From contig CAZSWG010000001.1 in assembly GCA_964610795.1 (NCBI GenBank), positions 1-42,602 of the forward strand: 42,602 bases of DNA, in the 5' to 3' direction. Made by a program: the position numbers and the translations under genes. The stretch's first letter is position 1; each line of letters starts with the position of its first letter. The DNA is from an uncultured Candidatus Saccharibacteria bacterium. Lineage in GTDB: Bacteria > Patescibacteriota > Minisyncoccia > UBA6257 > Colwellbacteraceae. Positions 2 through 25,619 of the stretch are shown here, piece after piece. The notes under the pieces were generated by a model that worked only from the letters and a program-made list of their open reading frames with translations, did not search any database and was not told where the DNA came from.

Positions 2-1279
2 TTAAAGTGTACTTGTGTATTTATCCATATAAGTATTTCCTACTGTTGAATATTTATTTACATAACTTGCTGGCGATGGCGACGCGCTCGCCGAGGCGCT
101 GGGAGATAAAGAAGCGCTAGGAGAAAGAGAAGCACTGGATGACCTTGATGCACTGGCCGAGGCGGAGGCAGAGGCGGATTTTGATGCCGACGCGCTGGCG
201 CTAGCGCTACCAGATGCCGACGCGCTGGCTGACGGACTAAGAGAAGCTGACTCGCTGGCGCTGGCTGACGGACTAGCTGAAGCGCTGGCTGACGCTGAGG
301 GAGATTGAGATTTACTCTCTGATGCCGAGGCACTTCTGCTGGCACTGGCACTCTCTGATTTACTCTCTGATGCCGAGGCTGATTTTGAGGCAGACTTAGA
401 TTCAGAGGCGCTCGCACTCTTTGATTCACTAGCAGAAGGGCTAAGGCTTTTAGATTCAGAGGCGCTGGGAGATAAAGAAGCGCTGGGAGATAAAGATTTA
501 GACGCTGACGCGGAAGGACTTTGTGATGGTGAAAGGCTAGCGCTTGTACTGCTTGACGGACTCTGAGAGGCCGAGGGACTCAGAGAAGGGCTTCCACTAA
601 ACGGTACATCAGTTGAAAATACTGGACTACCTGTTGCTGTTAAATCGTTATTATTAGCCGTTTCGTCAAGATAATCGTTATCAAGCTGCCAATAGGCCAC
701 AAGACCCGCTTCGTTGCCGACTAATTCCGTCTGGTATTTATCGGATATTTCCGTATCGGTTCGTATGTCATTCCAGATTCTTACTTCATCTATGAGGCCG
801 TCAAAAAACTCACTAGCAGGATCAAGTGAATTTGCACCAACATGGACTTCATAGGTATTGTTTCCGATGGTCGTTGCGCCGGTAAGCGCCATCGTATCGG
901 TAATGAGAGAACCGTTAATATAGACCTCAACGCTTGGTACGCTGATGTCTACTGCTATGGCAATATGCGTCCATGTTCCTGAAGTAATAGCAGTATTACC
1001 AACTCCAACAGTAACATTGCCACTCGCGTCACCAAAACGGATAACCGCTTTATCATCGCTCGACCGTATGGCAAATTCATATCCTCCGTTTACATCAGAT
1101 CTGAACTTGGAAATCATGGTAAAACCGGCTCCGGCCGTTGACGGTAATTGTTCCAGTTTTACCCAAGCCTCAACAGTGAAATCCGTCGATAAATCAAGAC
1201 CCGTTTGAGAAGCATCGGCAATAGAGGCATATTGTGAGCTAGAAAGTTCAAGATCAAGAGAATGGGTATTATCGGCCAT
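2..1279 (-). CDS. LamG / concanavalin-A-like lectin domain protein with a long Ser-rich low-complexity array and a Tyr/Lys-rich C-terminal motif
   Basis: ORF track gives 2..1285, but its first codon is TTG. The ATG at 1279 lies 8 nt after a -10-like box. The N-terminal ~225 aa has a Laminin_G_3-like pattern (FTVEAWVKL, GTWTHIAIAV, VYINGSL, FDGLIDEVRIWN, LVAYWQLD). Residues ~230-407 are S-x-S-A-S-x repeats. The protein ends YVNKYSTVGNTYMDKYTSTL, with TAA at 2-4. Confidence 0.8.
   Translation of the reverse strand: MADNTHSLDLELSSSQYASIADASQTGLDLSTDFTVEAWVKLEQLPSTAGAGFTMISKFRSDVNGGYEFAIRSSDDKAVIRFGDASGNVTVGVGNTAITSGTWTHIAIAVDISVPSVEVYINGSLITDTMALTGATTIGNNTYEVHVGANSLDPASEFFDGLIDEVRIWNDIRTDTEISDKYQTELVGNEAGLVAYWQLDNDYLDETANNNDLTATGSPVFSTDVPFSGSPSLSPSASQSPSSSTSASLSPSQSPSASASKSLSPSASLSPSASESKSLSPSASESKSASASESKSASKSASASESKSESASASRSASASESKSQSPSASASASASPSASASESASLSPSASASASGSASASASASKSASASASASASRSSSASLSPSASLSPSASASASPSPASYVNKYSTVGNTYMDKYTSTL
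65..598 (-). repeat. Coding low-complexity array (SPSAS / SESKS hexapeptide-like units, 18-bp periodicity)
   Basis: The translated sequence is almost only S, A, P, K, E, L and R with Ser at every second position. All reading frames are open across it. Confidence 0.9.
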
Positions 1280-1287
1280 ACCCAAAG

Positions 1288-1315: not shown

Positions 1316-2944
1316 TTACTGCAGGGTCTTTACGAGGTCTTTTCCTAATCCCCAATGAGGTACTTCTTCGCTTTCTACCCAGTTAATAAGAAGTTGTTGA
1401 TTCTTATATTGATCTTTTTCCCACCGCATACCTGTAGAATTAACACCAAAACGAATGTCTATATTAGGAGCCTCTGATTTCCACCTACCTAGGTTAAATT
1501 CATGTTTCCACGTAACTCTATGGTGAGTAAAAGGTTCAAACCCTGTGTTTCTGGTAAATTCTTCTTTCGTGAATCGTTCATATCGTTCTCTAAAATGGGT
1601 AATTGCAGCTTCCCGCCAAACACAAAGTCCGGATAGTTGGTTTACGTCATAATGTAAAGCATGGCCGTCTTCTCGTAAGTACCAGATATTTTGGTTATAG
1701 TAAAACGTATCTTTATCCGATGGAGTGAAATCAAAATGTGAAGGATGATAGAGTACGTCATGCTCACAAAAGAAAATTATATCCGACTTGCTATTTTCCA
1801 ACGCTCCCAGAATTTGTTTGAACATAGTGAGATACCCTCTTTTCAATGAAGGGAACCGCACGTTTTTAACTCCAAAGTCCATCTTTTTTAATGACGAACT
1901 GACTATAAACACACTTTTATCTTTCGTTACCTTTAAGAGTTGGTCCCGCACCGGCTTTGCTATTTTCTCGTTCAACTGATTGTCTGTATAAAATATCGCT
2001 CCCTTAGTAATTCCCCAATCGGGAGGATGAAACTTATCTAATATCCATTGGAATTTACGGGTAGCTTTGGGCCACTTATCTTTTTGAAACAACTCTCTTG
2101 AGAGTTCTCTATTTTCATTAACTTTGTTTTGAGGATTAGAATATGGGAAACCAAAATCCCCTCCACGAGTCCGGAAGCAATGCGCGTACCAAGTTTTCAT
2201 ATTGACTAAAACCTGCCCACCTGAAAGCCATGTTTTACAGGCGACCTCAACACCATTCTGTCCCCAGCTATTAAATTCTTCGCTAGTTAAATCTAATTCT
2301 AAATATTTTTGTTTCGTAACCATATAACATGATCCCTGTATGCTCATCGTCTCTCTATAATCTTTATTATAATTTGATCCTATAAGTACTCCTCTTTGAG
2401 CTTCTTCAGTTTTTGACCATCTGCCGTCGTATTGAAAATGCATCGTCTTATCAAATGTAAAAGCGTGAGTAGCAGGACTCTTTTTAGGAATCCAAACAAC
2501 ATCTTTTACTGTAGATTTACCACACTTTTCACACAATCCTGATGGGCTTTGATAACGCCTATGACCATCTGGACACACCCAATCAAAAATGTGCATATTA
2601 CGCATAATAGGAATTAAAGTTGTATCATCCCCTAATTCTTCCATTGCTTTAATCATCTTTAAATCAAAATCTTGGTCTACTGCACAATGGGCATCAAGTT
2701 TCATAACATATTTTGAATTAGATAATCTAACACCTTGATTAATAGCTCCACGCTGACCAACTGATACAGGATTATAAATTATAGCAACTCTATGATTAGA
2801 CTTAAAAGGTGGATCGGGAAGGAAACCATCTAGAACAGCTATTATTTCAGTCTGATCGCTAGTATGTTCCAGTACATCTTCTATGGTTCTGCCCATAAAC
2901 TCTTCATTTCTTCCTATAATTATTATAGAGAGCTTATATTGCAT
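1316..2944 (-). CDS. Two-domain glycosyltransferase: N-terminal GT-A (GT2/GT27-like) domain plus a C-terminal second transferase-like domain
   Basis: SIIIIGRNEE start and a DxH-type motif KLDAHCAV. WGQNGVEVACKTWLSGGQVLVNMKTWYAHCFR resembles the Gal/GalNAc-T motif and conserved His of GT27 enzymes. There is a Cys/His insertion, CPDGH...CEKCGK. The C-terminal ~230 aa carries CEHDVLYHPSHF. Confidence 0.75.
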   Translation of the reverse strand: MQYKLSIIIIGRNEEFMGRTIEDVLEHTSDQTEIIAVLDGFLPDPPFKSNHRVAIIYNPVSVGQRGAINQGVRLSNSKYVMKLDAHCAVDQDFDLKMIKAMEELGDDTTLIPIMRNMHIFDWVCPDGHRRYQSPSGLCEKCGKSTVKDVVWIPKKSPATHAFTFDKTMHFQYDGRWSKTEEAQRGVLIGSNYNKDYRETMSIQGSCYMVTKQKYLELDLTSEEFNSWGQNGVEVACKTWLSGGQVLVNMKTWYAHCFRTRGGDFGFPYSNPQNKVNENRELSRELFQKDKWPKATRKFQWILDKFHPPDWGITKGAIFYTDNQLNEKIAKPVRDQLLKVTKDKSVFIVSSSLKKMDFGVKNVRFPSLKRGYLTMFKQILGALENSKSDIIFFCEHDVLYHPSHFDFTPSDKDTFYYNQNIWYLREDGHALHYDVNQLSGLCVWREAAITHFRERYERFTKEEFTRNTGFEPFTHHRVTWKHEFNLGRWKSEAPNIDIRFGVNSTGMRWEKDQYKNQQLLINWVESEEVPHWGLGKDLVKTLQ

Positions 2945-2973
2945 ATTTGGTTCCTTTAAGCTACAATCATATT

Positions 2974-3444
2974 ATGAAATATCTTCAAATAATCTTGACT
3001 GATAGTGAGAAAACTAGGCTTTTCTCCAAAATTTTTATTGATCCAATTACCAATTGTTGGAATTGGACTTTTGCAAGAGATAAATTTGGATATGGATTTT
3101 TTCGTTATAAAGGAAATACATATAGAGTACATAGATTTATGTATGCCTATCTTATTGGAAAAATTCCTACGGCAAAATATGGCAAAGGAATTCCAGTATT
3201 TGACCATCTTTGTAAAAATAGATCTTGTTGTAATCCTAAACACCTTGAACTTGTTACTCAAAAAATTAATCTTCTTAGAGGATCTAGTCAAATGGCAATA
3301 AACACAAAAAAAATTCATTGTATTAAAGGACATTTACTCCCAAAAGCTAAAAAGGAAAGCCATGATGGAAAGCCTACCAGACGTTGTATAATCTGTCGCA
3401 GAGCCAATCGTATGCGCCGTTATTATGCTACTAAAAACACTTAA
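2974..3444 (+). CDS. Free-standing HNH homing endonuclease
   Basis: Motifs CWNWT, GYGFFRY, RVHRFMY, DHLCKNRSCCNPKHLELVTQKINL (HNH_3-like). It is on the opposite strand to all neighbours and visibly more AT-rich. The track starts at TTG 2947; the ATG at 2974 is preferred. Confidence 0.8.
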   Translation: MKYLQIILTDSEKTRLFSKIFIDPITNCWNWTFARDKFGYGFFRYKGNTYRVHRFMYAYLIGKIPTAKYGKGIPVFDHLCKNRSCCNPKHLELVTQKINLLRGSSQMAINTKKIHCIKGHLLPKAKKESHDGKPTRRCIICRRANRMRRYYATKNT

Positions 3445-3451
3445 ATCTACT

Positions 3452-4234
3452 TTATCCATTTCTTATCCTTTCATTATTTTTTAAAACATCTTTAATAAAT
3501 TCTGGAGAATAACCTGCTTTTTCCGAAGCCTTAACAATTGCGTTCAAATCCTTGGGCAAACACTTCCCGTCAAAACCCCGTCTATTTTTGTATACAGTCG
3601 TAAACATTTTTCCCTGCCGTTCATCTAAAACAAATCCCTCTCTCACAAGAGAGTAATCAACTCCAAACGCTTGTGCTATATTGAAAAACTCATTACAGAG
3701 GGTAACTTTAGCCGCAATAGCGCAATTTTCCATATATTTAATGAGTTCGCTTGTCGTTTCATCTACTTGATAGTACGTCTTCGTTGCCCCGAGGACAGGG
3801 TAAAAGATATCAAGTACCTCCTCCCTGTCCCCAGGGTCGCCCCCAATTATCATAAAAGAATGATGTTGAGGGTCAGTAGGATGAGGGTAAAGCCAAAAAG
3901 GTATATAATATCCGCCTTCACCAACGTACTCGGGACTGTGGCAAATTCGCTTTCCTGTAGCCTGTTTAAGCGACTTCGTAGTACCTGGAGGGATAGTTGA
4001 TTTAATAAGGATTAAACGAGTTTTAAGCCATCCTACGACTTCCTCTACTATGGAAATGTCGCAACTTCCATCCGGAAGCATAGGGGTTGGCACACAAACG
4101 ATAGCCAATTCACATTGATTAACTTCGTCGCGACTCTTTTCAATATTCCCATGTCTATCATAAAAAATAGAATCTGGAAAAATCTTTGCATACGCTCTTC
4201 CTACATACCCTCGTCCGATAATTGCTATTTTCAT
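3452..4234 (-). CDS. Short UDP-glucose/GDP-mannose 6-dehydrogenase-family protein
   Basis: MKIAIIGRGYVGRAYA (Rossmann GxGxxG), VPTP, KSTIPPGT, NPEF-like SPEYVGEG, and the catalytic-Cys motif DGKCLPKD (compare GGSCFPKD). At only 260 aa, the C-terminal nucleotide-sugar-binding domain seems to be missing. Confidence 0.7.
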   Translation of the reverse strand: MKIAIIGRGYVGRAYAKIFPDSIFYDRHGNIEKSRDEVNQCELAIVCVPTPMLPDGSCDISIVEEVVGWLKTRLILIKSTIPPGTTKSLKQATGKRICHSPEYVGEGGYYIPFWLYPHPTDPQHHSFMIIGGDPGDREEVLDIFYPVLGATKTYYQVDETTSELIKYMENCAIAAKVTLCNEFFNIAQAFGVDYSLVREGFVLDERQGKMFTTVYKNRRGFDGKCLPKDLNAIVKASEKAGYSPEFIKDVLKNNERIRNG

Positions 4235-4236
4235 AT

Positions 4237-4443
4237 TTATTTCAAAAACCTACTCCAAAAAATTATTCCGGAAGTAATAGCACATGAAACAGCAGTCCCG
4301 CCTACAACAAAAAGTGCCAAATTCTCACTTTTTCTTCTCATCTCTTGCATCGCAGAATCTGTCTCATTTATTGATATTTCCGGTTGTGGCACTACGTCAG
4401 CTTGCGGTATTGGCTTATCTCTATTTTCTGTCAACATAATCAA
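4237..4443 (-). CDS. Small single-pass membrane protein
   Basis: 68 aa with a hydrophobic segment LALFVVGGTAVSCAITSGIIFW. It is tightly packed between the flanking genes. Confidence 0.4.
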   Translation of the reverse strand: MIMLTENRDKPIPQADVVPQPEISINETDSAMQEMRRKSENLALFVVGGTAVSCAITSGIIFWSRFLK

Positions 4444-5296
4444 GCTCCTTATATAATGTACTAATGTTCTCTATGTGATATTTTTCTGCTTTTTTAAGAC
4501 ATCTTATAGAATATCCATCATAATATGACGGTGAAGCTCTTAATTCATCTAACGCTACTAAAAGTTCTGCCAAATCACCAACAGGAACATAACAGGTTTT
4601 CATCTCTTTGAAAGCCTTTTCATCAAGGGCAATAGTCGGTATGCCAAAAGAAGCGGCATTGACTAGCTTTAACGGATTAGATAAAATTTTCTTATACGGC
4701 CTCCAAACAATTTGAATATCTATCTTCTGGTAAAAATCTATAATATCCTGTCTTGTGAAAAATCTGGAATACTCAATGAGGTTCATTCCTCTTTCTGCCA
4801 GGAGTTGTTTTAGTTCTTTTGGAAGATACAAAAACGCTTTAGCTTCTCCGATAACACCCACCGTATTTACTTCTTTCCTTATCCTTTTAACCCGTTCAAA
4901 ATTGCAATGATGTTGAGGAATAAGTACAATTTTATTAGGAATTACTTTAGACATGACTTCGTAATCCGCTTCTGAACAAACAATGACTGTTACTTCGGGG
5001 TGCTTTTGGACTAATTGACCTAAATTATGACCGTCTATTATATCTAAATAGGGATTTCCCTCAAATACAAAATCATCGCCTTCTCGTACCATTGGTTTTA
5101 CATAAATACATACGCCATTCTCGTATCCGCTTGTCGGATTAAGATTCGCACCAATGTAACCGGCTATCTGATCTCCCCGGATCATAGAAGAAACACGCAT
5201 GAGATGGCCCGCTTTCCCCTTGAGTTTCCGACTGGGATCAAACTCTTGACTAGGATTGATATTAAGAAAAGCCCTTTTTGCGAATATAGAAATCAT
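4421..5296 (-). CDS. Putative GT-B-fold glycosyltransferase
   Basis: The C-terminal region IQIVWRPYKKILSNPLKLVNAASFGIPTIALDEKAFKE resembles the donor-binding half of GT1/GT4 enzymes. It sits inside the sugar cassette. Confidence 0.4.
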   Translation of the reverse strand: MISIFAKRAFLNINPSQEFDPSRKLKGKAGHLMRVSSMIRGDQIAGYIGANLNPTSGYENGVCIYVKPMVREGDDFVFEGNPYLDIIDGHNLGQLVQKHPEVTVIVCSEADYEVMSKVIPNKIVLIPQHHCNFERVKRIRKEVNTVGVIGEAKAFLYLPKELKQLLAERGMNLIEYSRFFTRQDIIDFYQKIDIQIVWRPYKKILSNPLKLVNAASFGIPTIALDEKAFKEMKTCYVPVGDLAELLVALDELRASPSYYDGYSIRCLKKAEKYHIENISTLYKELDYVDRK

Positions 5297-5772
5297 AAGA
5301 CAAAAATCTTTACTATGTCCGCGACCTTAAGTCTTCGTCCCGGGACATTCATTTCAACATTAAAATCTGGTATCAAGTTTATCGAATGCAAAAATTCATC
5401 TTTACTCACTATATAACGGTAAACATCTTGAATCTCGGCATCCCTGTTATTTTTCAAATAATTGATAAGTGTATATGGATTAGATCCCCATGTGATATTT
5501 CCTAACCTTATAATGCAATATTTAGGAAAATTCTCTTTTACCAATCCCTCCATCTCTCTTTTATGCTGAATATACCTTGTATTCCCGTAAAAAATAGACA
5601 GTGAGCTAAAATAGACAAGTCGTTGTGACCTGTTTTGTGCTAATAATAAATCCTTTTCTCTCTGATACTCAGATTCTCTGGTTTCAAGGCTGTTAGATAC
5701 CCCTGAAGCGAAATACAGCCTTCCTGGGTCATCCTGTAAAGCGCTAGCTATGTCTCCATGACCAACTATCAT
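5293..5772 (-). CDS. Short SDR-like protein (possible nucleotide-sugar epimerase/reductase remnant)
   Basis: The ATG at 5772 forms an ATGA overlap with the upstream stop. A YxxxK motif (YIQHK) lies downstream of a Ser-rich strand (FSSLSIF). The N-terminus reads IVGHGDIASAL. This is a weak call. Confidence 0.3.
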   Translation of the reverse strand: MIVGHGDIASALQDDPGRLYFASGVSNSLETRESEYQREKDLLLAQNRSQRLVYFSSLSIFYGNTRYIQHKREMEGLVKENFPKYCIIRLGNITWGSNPYTLINYLKNNRDAEIQDVYRYIVSKDEFLHSINLIPDFNVEMNVPGRRLKVADIVKIFVL

Positions 5773-6416
5773 GTCTTTACCCAAAACCAACTTCGGTATC
5801 TATCTCTAATTTCTCCTTCTTTGTAATCTAATGAACCCACTATAAAAAGGGGTAGCATCCTATAGCTCCACACATACGCTTCCAAAGCTCTTTTAACGTG
5901 AATCAGTTTCCTGAAAGGATAACGGGCGTAATCATGTCCTGACATAATTCCCCCAACCCTCACTTTCTTCAACCAATAGTGCAAATCGTTGGTAAAGTTT
6001 ACAAAGTCATGTCCCGCGTCAATATAGACAAAATCAAGTGAATTATCAGGAAAGTCCTTTACTGCGTCCATTGAATATTTTTTAACAAACGTATAATTCT
6101 TATAGGGAGCCATTCTTTTTTGAGCTTCTTTATAAATATCATCAAAGAATTGCTGTGTTTCTCCTCCTACAAAAACTCCTTCTGGATGCGCGTCAAGTTT
6201 CCACGCATCAATTCCATAGATGGTAGCTTGGGGATTAACTTTACATAAAACTTCAGAATACTTACCCTTAAATACCCCAATTTCTGCCCCTCTATTAAAA
6301 TTCAGTTCAGCAAACAACTCAGCCATATTGTCTCGGCCTATGTTTGGAATTTCAACAATATACTGGTTTCCAATATTAAGATTGTATTTTTTTACTATGT
6401 AGTCAAATGAGTTCAT
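5769..6416 (-). CDS. Class I SAM-dependent methyltransferase (Methyltransf_24 / sugar O-MTase-like)
   Basis: EIGVFKGKYSEVL (motif I), DFVYIDAGHDF and GGIMSGHDY are typical of this family. Confidence 0.7.
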   Translation of the reverse strand: MNSFDYIVKKYNLNIGNQYIVEIPNIGRDNMAELFAELNFNRGAEIGVFKGKYSEVLCKVNPQATIYGIDAWKLDAHPEGVFVGGETQQFFDDIYKEAQKRMAPYKNYTFVKKYSMDAVKDFPDNSLDFVYIDAGHDFVNFTNDLHYWLKKVRVGGIMSGHDYARYPFRKLIHVKRALEAYVWSYRMLPLFIVGSLDYKEGEIRDRYRSWFWVKT

Positions 6417-6483
6417 AACCCGAAAATACGTATTAGTATGTACATTGCTATAGAACCAATAAATGAACCCAAAATTAAATCTT

Positions 6484-6993
6484 TCATACCCAAAAATCTT
6501 CTAAATCAACAAAGTTTGATAGAACGGTTGCATGATTTTTGTCCTTATCCCAAATGATCCGGTACTTAAATAGTGAGTATATTTCCGAGTAGTGATATGT
6601 TTTATCTTTGTTACCGTTTGAGTCATGGATAATGATGTACTTTGCAAATTTAGCAAGCCTCTTAATCTCCTCAACACGGCTAGAATCGGGTGTTTGATCT
6701 ATCAAAACAACATCCCATGGCTTCTCAATCTTCGCGTCCGAGTATTTTTCAACAAAGTTTATTTCGTGTGTAGGACACTTATAACCATAATCTATAAAAA
6801 ATTGCATCCAAGATTTAGTATTCTCATAGGATACTAATTTACGATTAGAAAGATAACATTGATAATGAAGATAAGGAGTACTAAACACTCCCATTCCCAA
6901 CTCTAGGACATCTCCCGTAGTTTTAGACATCGCCTTAATAAGCGCTGGCAGATGAGTACCATAATTGCCGGATACGAACATTTTATATGCCAT
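6484..6993 (-). CDS. Class I methyltransferase-fold protein
   Basis: VLELGMGVFSTP (motif I-like), VVLIDQTPDS and IIIHDSN. A strong SD (GGAGGAAA) precedes the ATG. Confidence 0.45.
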   Translation of the reverse strand: MAYKMFVSGNYGTHLPALIKAMSKTTGDVLELGMGVFSTPYLHYQCYLSNRKLVSYENTKSWMQFFIDYGYKCPTHEINFVEKYSDAKIEKPWDVVLIDQTPDSSRVEEIKRLAKFAKYIIIHDSNGNKDKTYHYSEIYSLFKYRIIWDKDKNHATVLSNFVDLEDFWV

Positions 6994-7882
6994 TTTCCTC
7001 CTGCCATTTATCTAGTAACACTCTCCAATTTTCGGACCATGTAGGCATTAACTCAAATTTGTCTAAAAACCACTCAAAACTATGGAGATAGTTTCCTTTA
7101 TCTCCTACAAAATGTCTGGCTGCTATATCATAGGATTTAACCTCTTGAGCATGATCCATATGATAACCACGTTTGTTCCCTTGCTGATGGAGATGTGCAT
7201 ACCAGGTATTCTTATTGACCATTACTTTACCACCCATTAACCAATTCTTCAGTGCTAACCAGATTGGCTCCATTGCATGTCCGTAGGGGTCAATGTTTGG
7301 GAAGCCCCCCAATTCAAAATATCTATCTTTTGTCATAAACCAACCGGAACCGTGAATTTGTGGGGTTTCATCCACGCCAAGATGACTTGTAAGCCTCTCT
7401 TGAGTTCTCTCTGGCCAATGACCACCTGCCTTGAATCTAAAACCCTTTGGATCAGTGAAGGGACAACAGAGATAAAAGTAATCGTAAAACTCTTCTTTGC
7501 CATCTCTCATCTGAATACTCCAATCGTCTTTGATTATCTTGAAGCGGGGCATGACTATCCAATCTTCTTCCATATCAGCTTGGAGAATCTCATCAAAGCC
7601 TTTTCCGAAGGAACAGTGTGCATCAGACTTGTAGATATACTTGCCAGTAGCCATAGCGGCCATAGCGTTTATGTTGGTTTTGATGCCGACGACCGAAGGG
7701 AAGTGGACTACTTGTGTGTTAGAAACATGGGGGATATCTTCTACTCCATAACCACATTCACCATCAAACCCAACGATAACTTCATACTCTCCGGTCGTAT
7801 TCTCATAGATACTTTTAAGAGTCCGACTGAGGTTCTCTAATTTCTCCCCCCTCGCCGGTATTATTATTGACACTTTGCTCAT
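6983..7882 (-). CDS. GT-A glycosyltransferase, GT27-like paralog 2
   Basis: VSIIIPARGE, a DxH motif at KSDAHCSF, and LALKNWLMGGKVMVNKNTWYAHLH. It is collinear with the 1316..2944 N-terminal domain and with 8834..9724. Confidence 0.75.
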   Translation of the reverse strand: MSKVSIIIPARGEKLENLSRTLKSIYENTTGEYEVIVGFDGECGYGVEDIPHVSNTQVVHFPSVVGIKTNINAMAAMATGKYIYKSDAHCSFGKGFDEILQADMEEDWIVMPRFKIIKDDWSIQMRDGKEEFYDYFYLCCPFTDPKGFRFKAGGHWPERTQERLTSHLGVDETPQIHGSGWFMTKDRYFELGGFPNIDPYGHAMEPIWLALKNWLMGGKVMVNKNTWYAHLHQQGNKRGYHMDHAQEVKSYDIAARHFVGDKGNYLHSFEWFLDKFELMPTWSENWRVLLDKWQEENGI

Positions 7883-8409
7883 GGAATCCTTCCTATAATT
7901 ATCAATCTATCGTCGTATCTTTTTCCCACCTTCTTAACATTTACATAAAATCCAAGGAGCGCTTTTATTAACTCCTTGCCCACGCTCTCATCTGCCACAT
8001 CCTCAATTACATAAATAGTTTTTTTACTAAGCATGGGCATGACTGTTGCACAAGTAAAATACTGATCTTCCGGCTTGTGGCTTCCGTCATCAATAACTAA
8101 ATCAATGTCTGAACCAATTACGTCAATTAAATAAATTAGGTCTTTTTCTATCCCCTGATGACACAGATACGCTACAATACGATCTTCCTTTAAAAGACGT
8201 GTTTCATCAATTTCAGCCCCGTAAATCATTGCGTTAGGAAAGAAGTCTCTGAACATTCTCAAGCCCGCCCCCTCTCCAACACCTATTTCCAGAACCTTTT
8301 TAACCTCATTCCGCCTGTCTTTGAACAGACCATAATAAACAGGCAGGTAGTTATGCTTTCCTATCTTATCGGTGCCGTATTTTTTACCCAGCTTTTCTAA
8401 ATCGTTCAT
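7879..8409 (-). CDS. Class I SAM-dependent methyltransferase
   Basis: KYGTDKIGKHNYLPVYY followed by VLEIGVGEGAGLRMF and VIDDGSH. This is a signature common in sugar and polyketide O-methyltransferases. Confidence 0.7.
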   Translation of the reverse strand: MNDLEKLGKKYGTDKIGKHNYLPVYYGLFKDRRNEVKKVLEIGVGEGAGLRMFRDFFPNAMIYGAEIDETRLLKEDRIVAYLCHQGIEKDLIYLIDVIGSDIDLVIDDGSHKPEDQYFTCATVMPMLSKKTIYVIEDVADESVGKELIKALLGFYVNVKKVGKRYDDRLIIIGRIP

Positions 8410-8837
8410 TTTTGATCTTTGATTCTCTGCTTTAATCTTCCCGATCCAAAATTATGATCTCTCTTGTTGCGATAAATTTCTATACCTCGCTTTTCGCATA
8501 TATTCATTCCTGTCACCGGATGGTCCCTGGGTTCGTCTCCCATTATTCGTACATCTATATCAAGTGTACTTAAAATCTCTTTCAATTCTTCTTCGTTTTG
8601 ATAAACAATTATTTCATCAACATACTTACACGACTTAACCTGTATTTGTCTCTCTACAAGAGATTGGACAGGCTTATTTTTCCAAGGTCTATCTATTGAA
8701 GGATCAGTTTCAATACCAACCAATAAGTAGTCACAAACCTCTTTACACTCTTGAAGCATAACAGCATGACCCGCATGAAAAAGGTCAAAAGCACCGGCTA
8801 CAAATCCTACCCTATCGTTTTTTTGTATTTCTCTCAT
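8406..8837 (-). CDS. Cytidylyltransferase-family nucleotidyltransferase (TagD / HldC-RfaE domain II-like)
   Basis: GFVAGAFDLFHAGHAVML contains the HxGH motif. LLVGIETDPS ... KPVQSLVERQ is collinear with heptose-1-P adenylyltransferase and glycerol-3-P cytidylyltransferase. Confidence 0.8.
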   Translation of the reverse strand: MREIQKNDRVGFVAGAFDLFHAGHAVMLQECKEVCDYLLVGIETDPSIDRPWKNKPVQSLVERQIQVKSCKYVDEIIVYQNEEELKEILSTLDIDVRIMGDEPRDHPVTGMNICEKRGIEIYRNKRDHNFGSGRLKQRIKDQK

Positions 8838-9724
8838 TGTATCCAGCCCATATTTCTAATTTCTTCTTTCCAATTACTCGGCCAACTTGGCATACCGAGA
8901 AATTTATCATCTATAAACCATTCAAACCTGTAAACCATATTCGGCTCTCTATTGTTGAGCCAATGATCTGCTGACCAGCTAGAAGCCTCTATAGTACCTC
9001 CGGGGAATTTATAGAATCGCCCATAATGATTCCCCTTGTGGAGATGTGCATACCAAGTCTTCTTATTAACTTTCAATGCTCCGCCGCCGAACCATGTCTT
9101 AAACCCTATCTCCTGAGACTCCTGAGCGAACTGACCATAGCCTTCTTCATGTAGGCCATGAAGAAAATTATCAAAGTAGTCTTTAGTCATAAAATAGCAC
9201 GAACCCTGCATTGAAGGCGTATCATCAATTTCTTCTTTTATATATTCTTGCCATTTTTCTCTTTTCCACGGTACACCGTGCATACCATCATCGTGATCTT
9301 TACCTTTTCGGGGGAAATCTATATACATATAATCAATAGGATATTTATTATCAGTCCGTTCCTCTATTTTCCAATTTTCCGCATCCAGCGCATATCTTCT
9401 TGGTATCTGTACCCAATTATCCTTCAGGTGATTTTCAATGAGGATTTTTCCGAAGTTTGGGCCAAAAGCACAGTGATCGTCGGTTTTCATAATATATTTA
9501 CCTTTAGCCATAGCTACACAGGCGTTTATACCCGCCCTCAAACCCACAGGAGCGCTTGGATGGATATAGTGGACTCTTTCATCCTCTACAAGCGACTCGG
9601 GCCATTTCTCATCAATGTTGACTATAACCTCTAACTCACACCCAGCGTTTTTGAGTACATCTTCTATGGTTTTAGTAGTAAAAGGTGAATTTCTATTTGG
9701 TATAACAACCGATAACTCAATCAT
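8834..9724 (-). CDS. GT-A glycosyltransferase, GT27-like paralog 3
   Basis: LSVVIPNRN, a DxH motif at KTDDHCAF, SMQGSCYFMTKDYF, and GFKTWFGGGALKVNKKTWYAHLH. Confidence 0.75.
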   Translation of the reverse strand: MIELSVVIPNRNSPFTTKTIEDVLKNAGCELEVIVNIDEKWPESLVEDERVHYIHPSAPVGLRAGINACVAMAKGKYIMKTDDHCAFGPNFGKILIENHLKDNWVQIPRRYALDAENWKIEERTDNKYPIDYMYIDFPRKGKDHDDGMHGVPWKREKWQEYIKEEIDDTPSMQGSCYFMTKDYFDNFLHGLHEEGYGQFAQESQEIGFKTWFGGGALKVNKKTWYAHLHKGNHYGRFYKFPGGTIEASSWSADHWLNNREPNMVYRFEWFIDDKFLGMPSWPSNWKEEIRNMGWIQ

Positions 9725-10514: not shown

Positions 10515-11525
10515 TTATGGGAATGAAATGCTTGCACTCGGGCTTGCACTAGCTGATGGCGAAAGTGATCCAGATGGACTGTAGGACGCGCTGGCTGATC
10601 TTGACGCGCTGGCCGATGGCGATGCGCTCCCTGACGGGCTAAGAGAGGGAGAAGCCGACTTGGATGCACTGGCAGACGGACTCTTAGAAGCGCTTGCTGA
10701 CCTTGATCCGCTAGCACTACCAGATGCCGAGGCTGAAGCGCTTGCGGAAGCCGAGGCTGATTTTGAGGCTGATGCCGAGGCGCTAGCGCTGGCTGATCTT
10801 GACGCGCTGGCCGATTCCGAAGCAGACGGGCTGGCAGAACCAGATGGACTGAGTGATGCAGATACGCTGGCGCTTTCCGAGGCAGACGGACTAAGGGAAG
10901 CCGATGCACTAGCGCTTTCCGAGGCTGATGCACTGGCGCTTTCCGAGGCTGAAGGAGAAGCAGATTTGGAGGCGCTGGCGCTTTCCGAGGCTGAAGGAGA
11001 GAGTGATGGTGACGGGCTTGACGACTTTGATTCTGACTTTGAGGCGCTTTTGGAAGCAGAGGCTGACGGGCTAGCGCTCCCAGACGGCGAAACCGATGGA
11101 CTAACCGAAGGTGATACTGACGGACTTTCCGATGGTGAAGGACTTACCGATGGCGATGGCGAAGCTACTGCCGAACCTACTATACTCCAGATAGCGGCAG
11201 TTGATGTACCAGTATTCCTATACGCATTTCTGCCGGTTTTGGTAAGGTCATAGAAAATTGCACCTACTTTGAACCCCGAATCTCCTGTTGGAAGTGAATT
11301 ACCCTCTGCCTCTAAAATATTGTCAGTTGAAACATGATCTTCATTGGTCGCACTTGCAACTCGGTCATTATCCCATCGTAAAACCCTGTTTGTTCTATAC
11401 GGTAAAAGTGCCGTGAGAAAGTTTGCTTCAACAGTGGTCCGAAGTCCACTAGCTTTGGCCTCAATTCGTGCAAGCTCGGCTTGTGTATCTTTTGATAAAT
11501 CTGCTTTACGCTTAAATACTGCCAT
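10515..11525 (-). CDS. Head-associated protein with a ~120-aa globular N-terminus and a ~215-aa Ser/Pro/Ala tail (possible decoration protein)
   Basis: It lies immediately downstream of the major capsid gene. From residue ~121 to the C-terminus it is made of SPSxS/SASAS repeats. An AGGA lies 5 nt before the ATG. Confidence 0.65.
   Translation of the reverse strand: MAVFKRKADLSKDTQAELARIEAKASGLRTTVEANFLTALLPYRTNRVLRWDNDRVASATNEDHVSTDNILEAEGNSLPTGDSGFKVGAIFYDLTKTGRNAYRNTGTSTAAIWSIVGSAVASPSPSVSPSPSESPSVSPSVSPSVSPSGSASPSASASKSASKSESKSSSPSPSLSPSASESASASKSASPSASESASASASESASASASLSPSASESASVSASLSPSGSASPSASESASASRSASASASASASKSASASASASASASGSASGSRSASASKSPSASASKSASPSLSPSGSASPSASASRSASASYSPSGSLSPSASASPSASISFP
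10518..11165 (-). repeat. Coding Ser/Pro/Ala low-complexity array
   Basis: Same repeat class as 65-598, 37439-37642, 37962-40589 and 41220-42491. Confidence 0.9.
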
Positions 11526-11622: not shown

Positions 11623-12729
11623 TTAGAATGTGGCAAACAATTCTGCTGCTTGGTGTCTCATTATGTCTTTAACCTTAGCTCCATATACGAACAAGTCTTT
11701 GTAGGCTGTACCGAAGTCTCCGATTAAATCCTCTTCCATTCGTGCATCAAGTACCTTCTCTGCAAAGGTCAACCAATTCTGGTGTCCTGCAATACAGTGG
11801 TAGCCGTCCGTATTGTCGCCGGTAAGTCTATTGCTCTTAAACAATTGGAAGTTTTGCAAGTTACCCATGTAACCCTTTTTAACTAAATCCTGGTATGCCT
11901 CGTCTACATGAAGGACTATCCCGGTCCCTTGAGATAGTATTGTGAAAAACTCCGGAGGGACAACTAAGAACCTTCCCTCATCCGGCACTGATGAATACCC
12001 ATTTTTCTCAGCAAGATCAAGTGCCTGCTTTAACAATGCAACTTTATTCAAAATATTTGCGGCTGTGATTGCAATAACTGTATCTGCCTCAACTGTAAAC
12101 GTAGAGCTGGCTGCGATTGCTCCGCCTGTATAAGCTGATGTTATATCATCAAAATCATCTTCAATCGTGATTGAGGTTGTATTTGTAAAGGTCTTTACTC
12201 TGTACCAAGTCGTGTGTCCATCCGCCTTAAAGCCCCGGCCCACCATTGTTGAAGTGAATGTCGTTCCAGATCCAGTAACTACTCCTGTGGTTGCTGCTAC
12301 TTCAACTGTTCCGCCGGTTACATCAGTTCCAACCCTGTGTCCTGCTCCAACATCTGTATAAAGCCCAAATGCGAAGCTATCCATGTTTTTGGATCTTTCA
12401 TTGGCAACTTGAGTAACTATATAGGGATGTGGATCTTTGATGTAGGAAAGCCACTTATCAAGAGTTTTCTCTTTCCAATAGAAAGACTTGTATTGGTCAA
12501 TAGTTAATTGACCGTTGTTTTCCGAAAGAGAGTCTGCTGTAAGCGCTGCGTCTGCGTAGGTTTTTTCTGTAAGTTTGCTGAAATCTAAAACATTTAGGAG
12601 AGAGCCTATGGCGTTAATTTCGCCTTCATAGTTTCTGTTAACAATAGAATCAAGCAAATTCCTGTCATACATCTGTTGCATGACTTTGCTTGAAAAACCT
12701 TCTGCTAGCTTTGTTCCGTAGTCTGACAT
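11623..12729 (-). CDS. Major capsid protein (probably HK97-fold)
   Basis: 368 aa, positioned directly after the scaffold-like gene and downstream of the portal. It has its own near-consensus promoter. The call rests on size and synteny, not on a motif. Confidence 0.65.
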   Translation of the reverse strand: MSDYGTKLAEGFSSKVMQQMYDRNLLDSIVNRNYEGEINAIGSLLNVLDFSKLTEKTYADAALTADSLSENNGQLTIDQYKSFYWKEKTLDKWLSYIKDPHPYIVTQVANERSKNMDSFAFGLYTDVGAGHRVGTDVTGGTVEVAATTGVVTGSGTTFTSTMVGRGFKADGHTTWYRVKTFTNTTSITIEDDFDDITSAYTGGAIAASSTFTVEADTVIAITAANILNKVALLKQALDLAEKNGYSSVPDEGRFLVVPPEFFTILSQGTGIVLHVDEAYQDLVKKGYMGNLQNFQLFKSNRLTGDNTDGYHCIAGHQNWLTFAEKVLDARMEEDLIGDFGTAYKDLFVYGAKVKDIMRHQAAELFATF

Positions 12730-12839: not shown

Positions 12840-13646
12840 CTAAAGGTTTGATTCTATTTTTCCGGCGATAAGGTATTCCTTGTATTTATTGTAATTATTC
12901 TCTCGTAACTTTCTGGCTTCTTCAAGAGTTATCTTATCGGACTTTAGTTTTGGTTTATCATTCGGCCCACCGCTACCTCTTTCAAACATTCTCCCTTTGT
13001 TGATCTGTTTATTTTTGGCGTGTTCGTGTAAGAAAGCGGATACTAAAATAGTAAATGGTACACTATTATTCGCTTCTTGTGTTGCAAACGTCTTAAACTC
13101 TTCAGTCTTTCCTTCTAAATCCGGGCTATCAACTAACGTCTGTGGATCACCTAAAAATGATTCTACCGATTCATTCCACTTCTCAATCTTACTGGCTTGT
13201 GCTTTAGCCTCTGATATGACCTTTCTCCAATTACGGCTGATTACCGTTTCTTTAGCAAGAGTTTTCTCAAACTCACTCATTACCTCCCAATCGCTAAATT
13301 CTTTTGCCAATTCTTCTTCTGTTGGCTCCGGAATGTCGTCAGCCTCAGTGAGAGCTTTGTTAATAACCCGATTCTTCGCGTAAATCTTCTGATTTTCCCG
13401 GGCAGATGCGGATGATTTCTTTTTCTCTGCATCTAATTTTTTCTTGAGTGCTTCTTTTTCTTCTTCGAAAGGTTCAGCCCGTGGCTCCGGTTCAGGTTCT
13501 GGTTCCGGATCTGGAGTTGGTTCCGGATCTGGGGTTGGTTCGGGTTCTGGTTCCGGATCGGAAGCGGGATCTGCTTCTAATGCCCTTCTTTGGGCTTCTT
13601 CAAGTTCTTCTTTCGTGGGTTTTATGTGTCCTTTAGGCTTTGGCAT
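12840..13646 (-). CDS. Scaffolding-like protein with an acidic (PE/PD/PT)n N-terminal tract
   Basis: It sits between the portal block and the capsid gene. It is highly charged and predicted helical, and contains PEPEPEPTPDPEPTPDPEPEPEPEP. Confidence 0.55.
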   Translation of the reverse strand: MPKPKGHIKPTKEELEEAQRRALEADPASDPEPEPEPTPDPEPTPDPEPEPEPEPRAEPFEEEKEALKKKLDAEKKKSSASARENQKIYAKNRVINKALTEADDIPEPTEEELAKEFSDWEVMSEFEKTLAKETVISRNWRKVISEAKAQASKIEKWNESVESFLGDPQTLVDSPDLEGKTEEFKTFATQEANNSVPFTILVSAFLHEHAKNKQINKGRMFERGSGGPNDKPKLKSDKITLEEARKLRENNYNKYKEYLIAGKIESNL

Positions 13647-20719: not shown

Positions 20720-21018
20720 ACATTCTTATCTTCTTCTCCGCTATGCATTTTTCTAGCGGCAATATCTGACACCGCCTGGTAATATCCTTGGGCGTACATA
20801 TCTCCCTTGGTATAATCGTATGCTCGCTGTCGTAATTCCGTCACTATTTTTTTTATGATCTCTCTCCTCCCCTCTTCTTCCCATAGGAGCTTATGGCGGA
20901 CTATAAAGTCTTCTATCTTGTTGTAGAACTCTCCCATAGTTTCCTCATCAGGCCCATTGTCCCTAATTTTTTTCCATTGCTCTTCCCAATCATCTGCTCC
21001 TGTGGGTGGGGGGTTCAT
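20716..21018 (-). CDS. Hypothetical protein
   Basis: 100-aa ORF overlapping the methyltransferase stop by 4 nt. It is acidic and looks helical. Confidence 0.5.
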   Translation of the reverse strand: MNPPPTGADDWEEQWKKIRDNGPDEETMGEFYNKIEDFIVRHKLLWEEEGRREIIKKIVTELRQRAYDYTKGDMYAQGYYQAVSDIAARKMHSGEEDKNV

Positions 21019-21905
21019 AATAGTTTCATTGCTATTGCTGTTACAACATTTGTGGTGACAGCATTTCCCATCATCTTGTACCTCTGTGTATCGCTTATCA
21101 GTTCCCCGTCTGCTCCGTATTGAGTCCAGTTGTCGGGGAAGCCTTGTAGGCGTTCACATTCCACACAAGTTAAACGTCTAATCTGGTAGTTGCCTTCAGC
21201 AACGTACTGATTTCCGTGTTGATTTTTGGTGTAATGGACTGTAACCGCACCAGCAGTTTCGTTTTTTGGTGTCTTAGTCTGTGTGTTAATATCATCATTT
21301 TTTTGGCTGTCTGTTGTGATAGGAAATACTTCTGGTCTACGTGTTCCTCTAAGATGTCCGGTAATGAAGATGCGCTTCCTGTTCTGTGGAACCCCGAAAT
21401 CCTTTGAGTTAAGTACTTGCCATTGGAGGTCATACCCCAACTCATCAAGCGTGGCGAAGATGGTTTTAATAGTTCTTCCCTCGTCATGAGACAACAGTCC
21501 TTTGACGTTTTCCAGTAAACACAGTCGTGGTTGTTTCGCTTTGAGAATCCGAGCGATGTCAAAGAAAAGAGTTCCTCTGGTGTCGTCAAATCCCCGTCTT
21601 TTTCCAGCAATAGAGAAACTTTGGCAAGGAAATCCGCCACAGAGGAGGTCATGGTCGGGAATAGACTCTGCTGGGACTGTTCGGATGTCGGACTGGTCGC
21701 ACTCTCCGAAATGTTTTCTATAGACGGAGTTTGCGTACTTGTCCCATTCGTTTGAGTAAACACAGTATATCTGTTTCCTGTTCCCTTCATCGCTGATAAC
21801 GCCCCTATTATCTGATTTGGTGTTCTTAACAGTTTTTGATTGAAATACTTTTTCAATCCCATAATGAAATCCTCCTACACCAGCAAATAAGTCTATAAAT
21901 TTCAT
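21015..21905 (-). CDS. dcm: DNA (cytosine-5)-methyltransferase
   Basis: Motif I FIDLFAGVGGF, motif IV GGFPCQSFSIAGKRRG, motif VI ENVKGL, motif VIII QNRKRIFI, motif IX RRLTCVECERLQGFP, motif X GNAVTTNV. Confidence 0.95.
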   Translation of the reverse strand: MKFIDLFAGVGGFHYGIEKVFQSKTVKNTKSDNRGVISDEGNRKQIYCVYSNEWDKYANSVYRKHFGECDQSDIRTVPAESIPDHDLLCGGFPCQSFSIAGKRRGFDDTRGTLFFDIARILKAKQPRLCLLENVKGLLSHDEGRTIKTIFATLDELGYDLQWQVLNSKDFGVPQNRKRIFITGHLRGTRRPEVFPITTDSQKNDDINTQTKTPKNETAGAVTVHYTKNQHGNQYVAEGNYQIRRLTCVECERLQGFPDNWTQYGADGELISDTQRYKMMGNAVTTNVVTAIAMKLL

Positions 21906-23909: not shown

Positions 23910-24482
23910 TCACATTACTTCTATTCTTCTAATTTGATTTTTTGATTGCATTGATCTCGTAGCCCACCGACAATTTGATGGTTCATAATTGCCAAACGGA
24001 TTTATTCTATCAATAGAAGTATTTTTTTCTCCGTATATCTTTACATGATTGAGGTAAGATAAATACATATCGTTTTTGAAAATAATAAAATTTTTCCACA
24101 TATTACAAACTTTTATGCCCTTTGCTCCATACCTATAATAATTTACACAATATAATTTTTCACATCTTTGCCTCATTCCTCTCCAAATTTCATAGAATCT
24201 AAGTTTTAATTTATCTCCATTCCTAAAAGTAAATCCATGTATAATTTTATGTGTCTTATGTTTAATCCCTTTTTTTGACTTTCGTTGAGTTTCTTTCTGT
24301 AAGCAACCACAGCTTTTAACTCCTCTACCAACATTACAAACTGATACTATTTTTTCTTTTCCACAAACACATTGAAAAATCCAATATCTTCGTTTATGAC
24401 CAGTCTTATCTCTTATTGTATGAGAATATCTGATAGCAGTAAGTCTACCAAACTTTCTTCCGGTTAAATTAAACGGTTTCAT
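23910..24482 (-). CDS. Free-standing HNH-type homing endonuclease
   Basis: The N-terminal LTGRKFGRLTAI...W.FQCVCGKEKIV....SCGC zinc-ribbon pattern and the C-terminal IDRINPFGNYEPSNCRWATRSMQSKN are typical of phage HNH/AP2-type endonucleases. The gene is AT-rich and starts right after a terminator. Confidence 0.65.
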   Translation of the reverse strand: MKPFNLTGRKFGRLTAIRYSHTIRDKTGHKRRYWIFQCVCGKEKIVSVCNVGRGVKSCGCLQKETQRKSKKGIKHKTHKIIHGFTFRNGDKLKLRFYEIWRGMRQRCEKLYCVNYYRYGAKGIKVCNMWKNFIIFKNDMYLSYLNHVKIYGEKNTSIDRINPFGNYEPSNCRWATRSMQSKNQIRRIEVM

Positions 24483-25151: not shown

Positions 25152-25619
25152 TCACCCCCTATCTATAAGAATTGCTAAATTTTTAAATTTCTTTCCAGAC
25201 CGAAGTATATCCTTCCAATGTGAAATAAAGTAATCTTTGGTTAAAAACTCATCCTTCCCCAGCGCCGGGTCCCATACTTTAATTTTGCCGTTAGACAATC
25301 CTAAAAAAACTACGTAGTGTCCATCTTCATAGAGATCACCGGCAGAATAGTCTACAATCACAGAAAAACCAAGTTTACGGACTGCATACAGGAATTTTAA
25401 GAATCTTTTTCCGTTAGGATGAGTAAGGCTTTCAGCCCAAAAACCCTTTTTCTTCGCGTATACGGCAAGAGCGCTTGGGTCAACACCATTTTCTTTTGTT
25501 GCACCAGTGCCTTTCGTTATCTTTTCTTCTGACAGTTTCAGACCGTACTTATCAAAGATATACCGGAGAGCGGCTGGGCCGCACGTATAGTTTGTATTCT
25601 GCTGTAATTGTTCTCCCAC
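25152..25619 (-). CDS. Stand-alone C39-like (papain-fold) cysteine peptidase
   Basis: QQNTNYTCGPAAL (Gln plus catalytic Cys), DGHYVVFLG (His) and KVWDPALG (Asp) appear in the order expected for Peptidase_C39. Confidence 0.7.
   Translation of the reverse strand: MGEQLQQNTNYTCGPAALRYIFDKYGLKLSEEKITKGTGATKENGVDPSALAVYAKKKGFWAESLTHPNGKRFLKFLYAVRKLGFSVIVDYSAGDLYEDGHYVVFLGLSNGKIKVWDPALGKDEFLTKDYFISHWKDILRSGKKFKNLAILIDRG

Follow-up and report, generated by a model that had tools for sequence, protein, structure and literature searches.

Proteins with (Ser-X)n arrays that carry glycans, and phages whose virions are glycosylated, are each already known. The serine-rich repeat proteins (SRRPs) of Gram-positive bacteria, with repeat regions such as SLSNSVSMSE, are glycosylated in the cytoplasm by GtfA/GtfB and a variable set of extra glycosyltransferases (GTs) (PMC6973325), and the staphylococcal Ser-Asp repeat proteins are glycosylated by two dedicated glycosyltransferases, SdgA/SdgB, as outlined in PMC3794999. 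On the phage side, the accounts of Freeman et al. 2023 given in PMC12363180 and PMC12619734 describe phage-encoded GTs of mycobacteriophages Che8, Corndog and Myrna that glycosylate the C-termini of capsid and tail-tube subunits. The present study concerns a 42.6-kb stretch of DNA (42,602 nucleotides, contig CAZSWG010000001.1), here called the window; it covers most of a genome whose owner, a tailed phage, is uncultured and known from metagenomes alone. Between its head and tail modules, and co-oriented with them, lies a tightly packed cassette of 10-11 sugar-related genes (1316-9724, 8.4 kb), and four proteins of its virion modules bear long (Ser-X)n arrays; cassette and arrays together occupy ~33% of the window. 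The best explanation for this arrangement, which we hold with moderate confidence on the strength of sequence comparison and structure models, is that the cassette O-glycosylates the phage's own arrays in the cytoplasm. Full-text literature searches returned no paper describing the combination of GT27-like genes and phage (S-X)n arrays.

Annotation was based on Pfam, NCBIfam, PHROG and PDB searches of open reading frames (ORFs) that included all large ones of the window (Table 1). An earlier note, made from the letters alone, had counted three GT-A glycosyltransferases in the cassette, and all three (GT2a, GT2b and GT2c) do match Pfam Glycos_transf_2. In profile and structure searches they come closest to the polypeptide GalNAc-transferases (ppGalNAc-Ts; CAZy GT27), the mucin-initiating enzymes of eukaryotes. 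In single-sequence searches the ppGalNAc-Ts rank first, if weakly: ppGalNAc-T1 provides the only PDB matches of GT2b (phmmer, E 0.2), and Toxoplasma and animal GalNAc-Ts head the PDB matches of GT2a. With a family profile of 34 sequences, comprising GT2c orthologues and both paralogues, the top 15 PDB matches are all ppGalNAc-Ts, with E values down to 2e-10 and alignments spanning residues 4-260, the catalytic domain in its entirety; GT2 enzymes, among them SpsA and chondroitin synthase, align only over the first ~95 residues, the nucleotide-binding half. The AlphaFold2 model of GT2c (pLDDT 85.6, pTM 0.88) leads to the same group, ppGalNAc-Ts making up all 50 best matches listed by Foldseek against the PDB (E ~1e-13, TMq 0.58-0.71). 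The outcome that the earlier note had set beforehand as fatal to its proposal, namely that the GTs would turn out to be polysaccharide or lipid-carrier GT2 enzymes, is therefore not what profile and Foldseek searches return.

The resemblance includes the active site. D82 and H84 (DxH), H227, and W211, G214 and G215 (W..GG) are invariant in all 34 sequences, and in the profile alignment H227 and W..GG fall on the 'VGHVF' and 'WGGENLE...W.CGG' stretches of ppGalNAc-T4. We take H227 to be the third Mn2+ ligand and W..GG to be the Gal/GalNAc-T motif. Pfam Glyco_transf_7C gave no match in the phage GTs. As judged from model and alignments, the cassette enzymes are GT27-like in fold and active site, which does not make them demonstrated members of GT27. 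They share with that family the whole catalytic domain, the DxH...H Mn2+ site and the W..GG segment, as well as the occurrence of several paralogues side by side and, in the phage, candidate acceptors that are dense Ser arrays. However, they are only ~300 aa long and 16-22% identical to the eukaryotic enzymes, and come with no ricin-type lectin domain, membrane anchor or secretory pathway (GT2c and GT2b gave no match to the lectin domain and have no hydrophobic segment), so that they would act in the bacterial cytoplasm; and, compared with GT27 acceptors, the phage arrays are almost devoid of Thr. GT2a is a two-domain protein. Its C-terminal domain (aa ~315-542) has an invariant E-x-D motif and is a separate ORF in some relatives; a profile of the domain family found no PDB sequence match. 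The GT27-like family as a whole is large. Clustering at 90% identity leaves more than 1,065 groups, and at 50% identity 338 representatives match with E <= 1e-30; some representatives (P0140-P0147) are polyproteins of 555-1,352 aa in which two or three GT27-like domains are joined. No match to GT2c came up at E 1e-3 when 50,697 deposited phage genomes, those of mycobacteriophages among them, were searched by tblastn, and megablast of 12.8 kb against deposited phages likewise gave none.

The candidate acceptors are five (Ser-X)n arrays in four virion-module proteins, which together measure 1,844 aa and contain 897 Ser. Ser accounts for 49% of their residues, Ala for 21%, Pro for 11%, Leu for 7% and Thr for 0.5%. 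A Ser is followed by another at +2 in 89-99% of cases, the longest (S-X)n runs extend over 462 aa without a break, and SLSPSA is the commonest hexamer. Ser-rich proteins bracketing the cassette, with two more in the tail module, had been reported in the earlier note; all four are there, and the arrays are larger than it had claimed. The arrays of the giant Ser protein are separated by repeated globular domains of ~200 aa. Array serines draw on all six Ser codons in the proportions typical of the genome, and Tandem Repeats Finder, run on the whole window, listed only six short rows. Typical codon usage combined with an almost complete lack of DNA repeats indicates that the pattern is preserved in the protein rather than generated by recent DNA slippage. 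Slippage junk or a wrong-strand artifact could be ruled out on these grounds and because the arrays run in frame from conserved N-domains. Genes of such low complexity are systematically missed, truncated or misannotated by gene callers. The capsid-adjacent array protein has only 18 homologues in a protein database of ~5.8 billion clusters, all of them 79-182 aa and too short for a full array, compared with more than 1,000 for the neighboring GT, and the ENA assembly of the same phage annotates an opposite-strand 'EAEADGL...' ORF (10660-11253, plus strand; L120:8472-9065) in place of the array gene.

Some of the array proteins have distinctive ends. Capsid-adjacent arrays terminate in a conserved ...S-x-S-F-P in 43 of the 84 tails examined (window, L004, L006, L008, L012, L066, L069 and others), pointing to a defined cap or recognition element at the C-terminus. 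Tyr/Lys-rich C-terminal tails are found on the LamG array protein (window 2-60, YVNKYSTVGNTYMDKY, Y-x-x-K-Y) and on the giant Ser protein (37839-37950), and L012 has YTDKYTTQGTAYTDKYSIQGTAYTDKY near 19700; they may be anchoring or binding repeats.

Among the systems mentioned above, the SRRP loci offer a close analogy. There too, (S-X)n dipeptide repeats hundreds of residues long flank globular binding domains (in the phage, LamG and the ~200-aa domains), and soluble GTs are encoded beside the acceptor gene together with a varying number of glycan-diversifying GTs. In contrast to SRRP loci, Pfam, NCBIfam and PHROG scans of the phage found no GtfA/GtfB (GT-B, DUF1975) or SecA2/SecY2/Asp genes, and there is neither a signal peptide nor an LPXTG motif; the initiating candidates are GT-A enzymes of GT27-like type, and the arrays proposed as acceptors belong to proteins of the phage structural modules. 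Ser-Asp repeats are stalks modified by soluble GTs encoded nearby, SdgA/SdgB being GT-B enzymes. In those repeats X is Asp only, and the proteins are anchored in the cell wall. With the mycobacteriophages the present phage, known from its genes alone, shares phage-encoded GTs near structural genes, but the acceptors there are short C-terminal regions, whereas the candidates here are arrays of about 90-890 aa on separate proteins; the cassette is also larger, and the mycobacteriophage genomes were among those lacking a match to GT2c.

Association of arrays with GT27-like genes is conserved. Scans of IMG/VR with one GT and the capsid protein yielded 99 loci and, after removal of duplicates, 76 distinct relatives of the capsid protein (49-84% identity). 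An array protein, composed of a 115-aa N-domain and an array of 130-409 aa (median 212), follows the capsid gene in every relative with at least 1.3 kb of downstream sequence (64/64). A GT2c orthologue is present 1.0-4.5 kb past the end of the capsid gene in 45 of the 47 relatives with at least 3 kb downstream. The remainder of the cassette is shuffled: relatives have two to five GT27-like matches and from none to three Methyltransf_24 genes; the genes for the cytidylyltransferase and the dehydrogenase-like, SDR-like and GT-B-like proteins are each present or absent, and the cassette ends at Ser-array tail proteins. The pairing was also recovered in a search that ignored the GTs altogether, in which 2.9 million viral contigs were scanned for the coding pattern of the array motif (TCN Ser codons only). 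This produced 44 stretches, 16 of them with GT27-like genes within a few kb; 21 loci showed an array only. In nine of these 16 (L122, L126, L130, L137, L138, L148, L155, L156 and L163) a GT2c-like gene of 37-43% identity stands directly beside a co-oriented array of 155-898 aa, and eight of the nine contigs have no detectable homology to the structural proteins of the window, L156 having a weak terminase match only. With nine adjacent pairs in distant phages, the pairing recurs well outside the close family, and the array and GT27-like gene may move as a unit between phage types. On two large contigs, L138 (113 kb) and L148 (124 kb), an array of 849-898 aa is followed by the GT2c-like gene. 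PHROG matches on the distant cassette-and-array contigs L110, L117 and L118 were too sparse for classification.

None of the conserved cassette proteins contains a transmembrane-like segment. Pfam and NCBIfam scans found no match to an initiating phosphoglycosyltransferase, flippase, polymerase, oligosaccharyltransferase, bactoprenol-linked GT or GT-C family. Soluble enzymes and the lack of lipid-carrier machinery fit direct cytoplasmic glycosylation of a soluble acceptor, and set the cassette apart from gtrABC or Wzx/Wzy lipid-carrier cassettes. The earlier note had also included a small membrane protein in the cassette (ORF 4237-4443). It begins with TTG, has one hydrophobic segment and no homologue in any relative, and the genes that flank it abut in relatives; it is probably not a gene, and we have dropped it from the conserved set.

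The accessory genes are a mixed lot, and here the earlier gene list held up only in part. The TagD/HldC-like nucleotidyltransferase is well founded, its best PDB matches being ethanolamine-phosphate cytidylyltransferase (E 7e-24) and glycerol-3-phosphate cytidylyltransferase TagD (E 6e-13); in relatives the GT-B-like gene frequently adjoins it. Of the three S-adenosylmethionine (SAM) methyltransferase-fold proteins, two are of the Methyltransf_24 type, while the third, a 169-aa protein conserved in phage and cellular cassettes alike, has only an ExGxG motif to suggest this fold: Pfam, PHROG and NCBIfam gave no match, and PDB matches of its profile are weak and mixed (IsdH E 0.003, tRNA O-methyltransferase E 0.03). 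The protein likened to UDP-sugar dehydrogenases has the N and central domains but is short, aligning to positions 72-296 of the 413-position NCBIfam model of nucleoside diphosphate (NDP)-sugar dehydrogenases, and the C-terminal UDP-binding domain is missing. All phage relatives share this short form, and the sequences suggest that these proteins may be a distinct enzyme family rather than bona fide UDP-glucose dehydrogenase (UGDH). Cellular counterparts in Woesebacteria (L103:16765-18630; L112:8583-10544) have a similar core, with the UDP-binding domain absent or nearly so, fused to an uncharacterized N-terminal domain of ~230 aa. As for the short-chain dehydrogenase/reductase (SDR)-like and GT-B-like proteins, sub-cutoff similarity or invariant motifs speak for the names given to them but firm PDB matches are lacking: the former matches extended-SDR nucleotide-sugar enzymes only, and weakly (E 0.08-0.7), and the family profile of the latter has no PDB match. 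The claim that all genes of the cassette region are co-oriented fails for one, an HNH homing endonuclease that lies between the dehydrogenase-like gene and GT2a on the plus strand and is extraneous to the sugar system.

One could envision the following course of events. Late in infection, virion proteins with very long disordered (Ser-X)n arrays would be made, one of them encoded after the capsid gene and three in the tail/fiber module. Virion assembly takes place in the cytoplasm, and there the co-transcribed soluble enzymes would attach sugars to the array serines sequentially and directly from nucleotide sugars, with no lipid carrier. GT2c, encoded beside an array gene, would start the glycans on Ser; GT2b and GT2a would either contribute more initiating sugars or elongate the glycan. 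Tailoring of the sugars would fall to the variable accessory enzymes, namely the O-methyltransferase-like, SDR-like and dehydrogenase-like proteins and the cytidylyltransferase with its GT-B-like partner; it might consist of methylation, oxidation/reduction, or addition of a phospho-glycerol or phospho-ethanolamine substituent. The virion would end up with a hydrated brush of glycans covering its capsid and its long, flexible fibers.

The cassette also has cellular relations. A scan of 185,579 species genomes identified 20 loci, mostly in metagenome-assembled genomes (MAGs) of Patescibacteria (Woesebacteria, Parcubacteria, Zambryskibacteria, Gottesmanbacteria, Roizmanbacteria and Saccharibacteria). 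Some of the loci belong to the phage itself, which had been binned into a MAG; L100 is the same contig as L001. Three loci are cellular, on MAG contigs of 27-119 kb that include a 71-kb and a 119-kb Woesebacteria contig, the third belonging to a bin labeled Gammaproteobacteria. All three contigs have orthologues of GT2c (55-65% identity) and GT2b, accompanied by differing subsets of the others (169-aa protein, Methyltransf_24, GT-B-like, SDR-like and GT2a). Their neighbors are SIS, transaldolase, HAD, GHMP kinase, full-length UGDH, GFO/IDH oxidoreductase, epimerase, NTP-transferase, DegT aminotransferase and radical SAM genes, and one contig also encodes DprA and ComM. These loci show the cassette to be derived from, or common to, a cellular glycan system. 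Binning, gene sharing, similar G+C and the phage's peptidoglycan hydrolases suggest, with moderate confidence, that the host belongs to the Patescibacteria; the hydrolases point to a bacterial host with a murein wall rather than an archaeal one.

These cellular clusters inspire a different view of the cassette, in which a borrowed Patescibacteria surface-glycan cluster serves as an auxiliary module that remodels glycans or glycoproteins on the surface of the infected cell, for superinfection exclusion, adhesion or receptor masking, while the arrays are unrelated flexible spacers. The orthologues lie in cellular sugar clusters, near DprA and ComM, the rapid turnover of the accessory genes resembles that of surface-antigen loci, and the literature on Patescibacteria phages reads phage LamG and sugar genes as auxiliary metabolic genes (AMGs) of benefit to the host (PMC12911398). 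We nonetheless find this unlikely: the phage copy comes without membrane protein, lipid-carrier GT, flippase or ligase for glycan export; it sits inside the late structural block, co-oriented and tightly packed; in 45/47 relatives the array gene has GT2c right behind it, as it does in distant phages that were identified through the array alone; and the LamG domain is no free AMG but shares a virion-module protein with an array. It is less likely still, in our estimation, that the cassette glycosylates other virion proteins, such as the Thr-rich capsid protein (10% Thr) or the 104-aa protein (14% Thr), and that the arrays are unglycosylated entropic spacers or are modified in some other way. 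The mycobacteriophage glycans, in the accounts cited above, are on the capsid and tail-tube subunits themselves. Yet the strongest linkage is that of an array gene followed by GT2c, seen also in phages with no detectably related structural proteins, and the 897 array Ser stand in a context like that of SRR regions known to be densely O-glycosylated.

A role of the GTs and methyltransferases in DNA hypermodification, as a means of evading restriction, is very improbable and was rejected. Phage GTs often glycosylate DNA, as noted in PMC12619734, and one of the Methyltransf_24 families carries the PHROG label 'DNA methyltransferase'; but no hydroxymethylase, thymidylate-synthase-like gene, nucleotide-kinase module or other gene of hypermodification type was found in the window, and the cassette belongs to the structural module, is linked to arrays and has cellular homologues in sugar-nucleotide clusters. 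Moreover, the DNA glucosyltransferases of T4 are GT-B enzymes, whereas those of the cassette are GT27-like GT-A enzymes.

Several observations weigh against glycosylation of the arrays, the explanation that we prefer. Similarity to the ppGalNAc-T fold, as predicted here, is not proof of a peptide acceptor, the more so as the ricin-type lectin domain is absent and related GT-A families such as GT7 act on glycan acceptors. Two relatives, L034 and L047, keep the array, after which come a small ORF and a LamG gene, and the 2.4 kb that follow contain no cassette; as a matter of speculation, such phages could use orthologues encoded by the host. Conversely, the cellular cassettes lie in sugar-nucleotide clusters, and no Ser array was found within the 11-21 kb examined per locus, so these enzymes also work in cells, and not necessarily on arrays. 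The earlier note had made joint occurrence of cassette and arrays in relatives a point for comparison, and the counts given above and the distant pairs largely bear it out, these two groups being the exceptions. Virion display is deduced from gene position and, for one of the four array proteins, from its LamG and 'virion structural protein' matches. The 10515-11525 protein, described earlier as head-associated with a Ser tail, does have its array and does adjoin the capsid gene, but the head association is positional only: the AlphaFold2 model of its N-domain has a pLDDT of 66 and no Foldseek PDB match below E 0.8. Finally, several accessory annotations, namely the SDR-like, GT-B-like and third methyltransferase-like assignments, are weak. 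The virion-mucin proposal of the earlier note is thus supported in part: the GT27-like fold and the conserved linkage speak for it, and array-only relatives, array-less cellular cassettes, positional head association and corrections to the gene list limit it.

What is new is the existence outside eukaryotes of GT27-like candidates for initiating enzymes, and of dedicated acceptor arrays, ~890 aa at the longest, on proteins of the structural modules of a phage. So is the scale, about one third of a near-complete genome, together with the probable Patescibacteria host and the contrast with the host-benefit reading of AMGs (PMC12911398). Should array glycosylation be correct, virion glycosylation would extend past actinobacteriophages to abundant environmental phages with giant dedicated acceptor arrays, and the cassette would include the first non-eukaryotic, cytoplasmic relatives of mucin-initiating GalNAc-transferases, with a natural acceptor encoded adjacent to them. 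Sugar and lectin AMGs of Patescibacteria phages would then have to be re-read as serving virion building and not host benefit, and a ~300-aa GT with an (SPSASL)n array would be a compact soluble pair for bacterial glyco-engineering. It is tempting to speculate further that these are viral mucins: that widespread uncultured phages, probably of Patescibacteria, carry kilodalton-scale capsid and fiber arrays O-glycosylated in the cytoplasm by lectin-less homologues of eukaryotic mucin-initiating GalNAc-transferases, as the first mucin-type O-glycosylation machinery outside eukaryotes, with Patescibacteria and their phages as candidates for an evolutionary reservoir, or a sister lineage, of GT27. 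In this full form the idea is doubtful.

Table 1. Features of the window (positions in nucleotides; strand - is minus, + is plus)
Feature	Position	Strand	Evidence and remarks
LamG/concanavalin-like array protein	2-1285	-	Laminin_G_3 E 4e-26; PHROG 'virion structural protein' E 5e-12; 199-aa array, aa 217-415, nt 41-637
GT2a, two-domain glycosyltransferase, 542 aa	1316-2944	-	Pfam Glycos_transf_2 E 3e-15; N-terminal GT27-like GT-A domain
HNH homing endonuclease	2947-3444	+	Pfam HNH_3 E 2e-9; between dehydrogenase-like gene and GT2a; outside sugar system
Short nucleotide-sugar dehydrogenase-like protein, 260 aa	3452-4234	-	UDPG_MGDP_dh central domain E 2e-20, N domain E 8e-13
GT-B-like conserved protein, 291 aa	4421-5296	-	Glyco_trans_1_4 E 3.5e-5, 24.5 bits against 27-bit cutoff
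Minimal SDR-like protein, 165 aa	5293-5790	-	GxGxxA and YxxxK invariant in 17 homologues
Methyltransf_24 O-methyltransferase-like protein, 215 aa	5769-6416	-	Pfam E 7e-14
Conserved 169-aa cassette protein, possibly methyltransferase fold	6484-6993	-	Profile with invariant ExGxG
GT2b, GT27-like GT-A paralogue, 299 aa	6983-7882	-	Pfam Glycos_transf_2 E 8e-13; 35% identity to GT2c
Class I SAM methyltransferase-like protein, 176 aa	7879-8409	-	Methyltransf_24 24.1 bits, below Pfam cutoff; PHROG methyltransferase E 2e-13
Cytidylyltransferase, candidate CDP-glycerol or CDP-ethanolamine synthase	8406-8837	-	Pfam CTP_transf_like E 8e-15
GT2c, GT27-like GT-A glycosyltransferase, 296 aa	8834-9724	-	Pfam Glycos_transf_2 E 2e-11; conserved first cassette gene
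Tad2-like (Thoeris anti-defence 2) domain protein, 97 aa	9725-10018	-	Pfam E 9e-11, above cutoff
Capsid-adjacent array protein, candidate capsid-displayed acceptor	10515-11525	-	115-aa conserved N-domain and 226-aa array, aa 111-336, nt 10518-11195
Major capsid protein, P22-coat-like	11623-12729	-	PHROG major head protein E 6e-17; synteny anchor
C5 cytosine DNA methylase	21015-21905	-	E 4e-84
Second HNH gene	23910-24482
C39-family peptidase	25152-25619	-
M23 peptidase	25622-26575	-
Large polyvalent protein, 1,839 aa, LPD38 domain	27561-33080	-	E 4e-46; tail/ejection region
400-aa protein, L-Ala-D-Glu-peptidase-like N-terminus	33083-34285	-	Adjoins 1,839-aa protein
533-aa tail-module protein	36203-37804	-	87-aa array, aa 46-132, nt 37409-37669
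Giant Ser protein, >1,588 aa, 44% Ser, runs past window end	37839-42602	-	Arrays of 441 aa (nt 41202-42524) and 891 aa (nt 37938-40610)

All sizeable ORFs of the window are on the minus strand, the HNH endonuclease of the cassette region being the sole plus-strand gene. Transcription order begins with the giant Ser protein (42602->37839), the 533-aa Ser-array protein and tail/ejection-type proteins; these are followed by the M23 and C39 peptidases, the second HNH endonuclease, the C5 DNA methylase and RusA. The head genes come next (large terminase, a 592-aa protein, a scaffold-like protein and the P22-coat-like major capsid protein), and the order ends with a Ser-array protein, the 104-aa protein, the Tad2-like protein, the sugar cassette and the LamG protein with its Ser array. 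The 592-aa protein, at the position of a portal, has no family match, and family scans of the ORFs recognized no tail tube, sheath or tape-measure gene in the window. Among deposited phages, tblastn with the capsid protein finds only weak P22-coat-like matches, to the 'P22 coat protein' of Clostridium phages. As related contigs reach lengths of 42-48 kb, the window is nearly a whole genome; circular closure could be ruled out, the window end cutting the giant Ser protein within a globular domain.

A few further observations concern individual genes. The 533-aa tail-module protein is conserved after array proteins in L012, L013, L017, L121, L131 and L152. The Tad2-like gene occupies the junction of head genes and cassette in most relatives, and lies inside or after the cassette in one subgroup. 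Homologues of the cassette-region HNH endonuclease are on the opposite strand beside GT2a in L017 (14044-14499) and within a split GT2a match in L144 (4454), which suggests site-specific homing. The scaffold-position protein (12840-13646, minus strand) has an N-terminal acidic, Pro-rich repeat, PEPEPEPTPDPEPTPDPEPEPEPEP, another low-complexity element in the head module that is unlike the Ser arrays.

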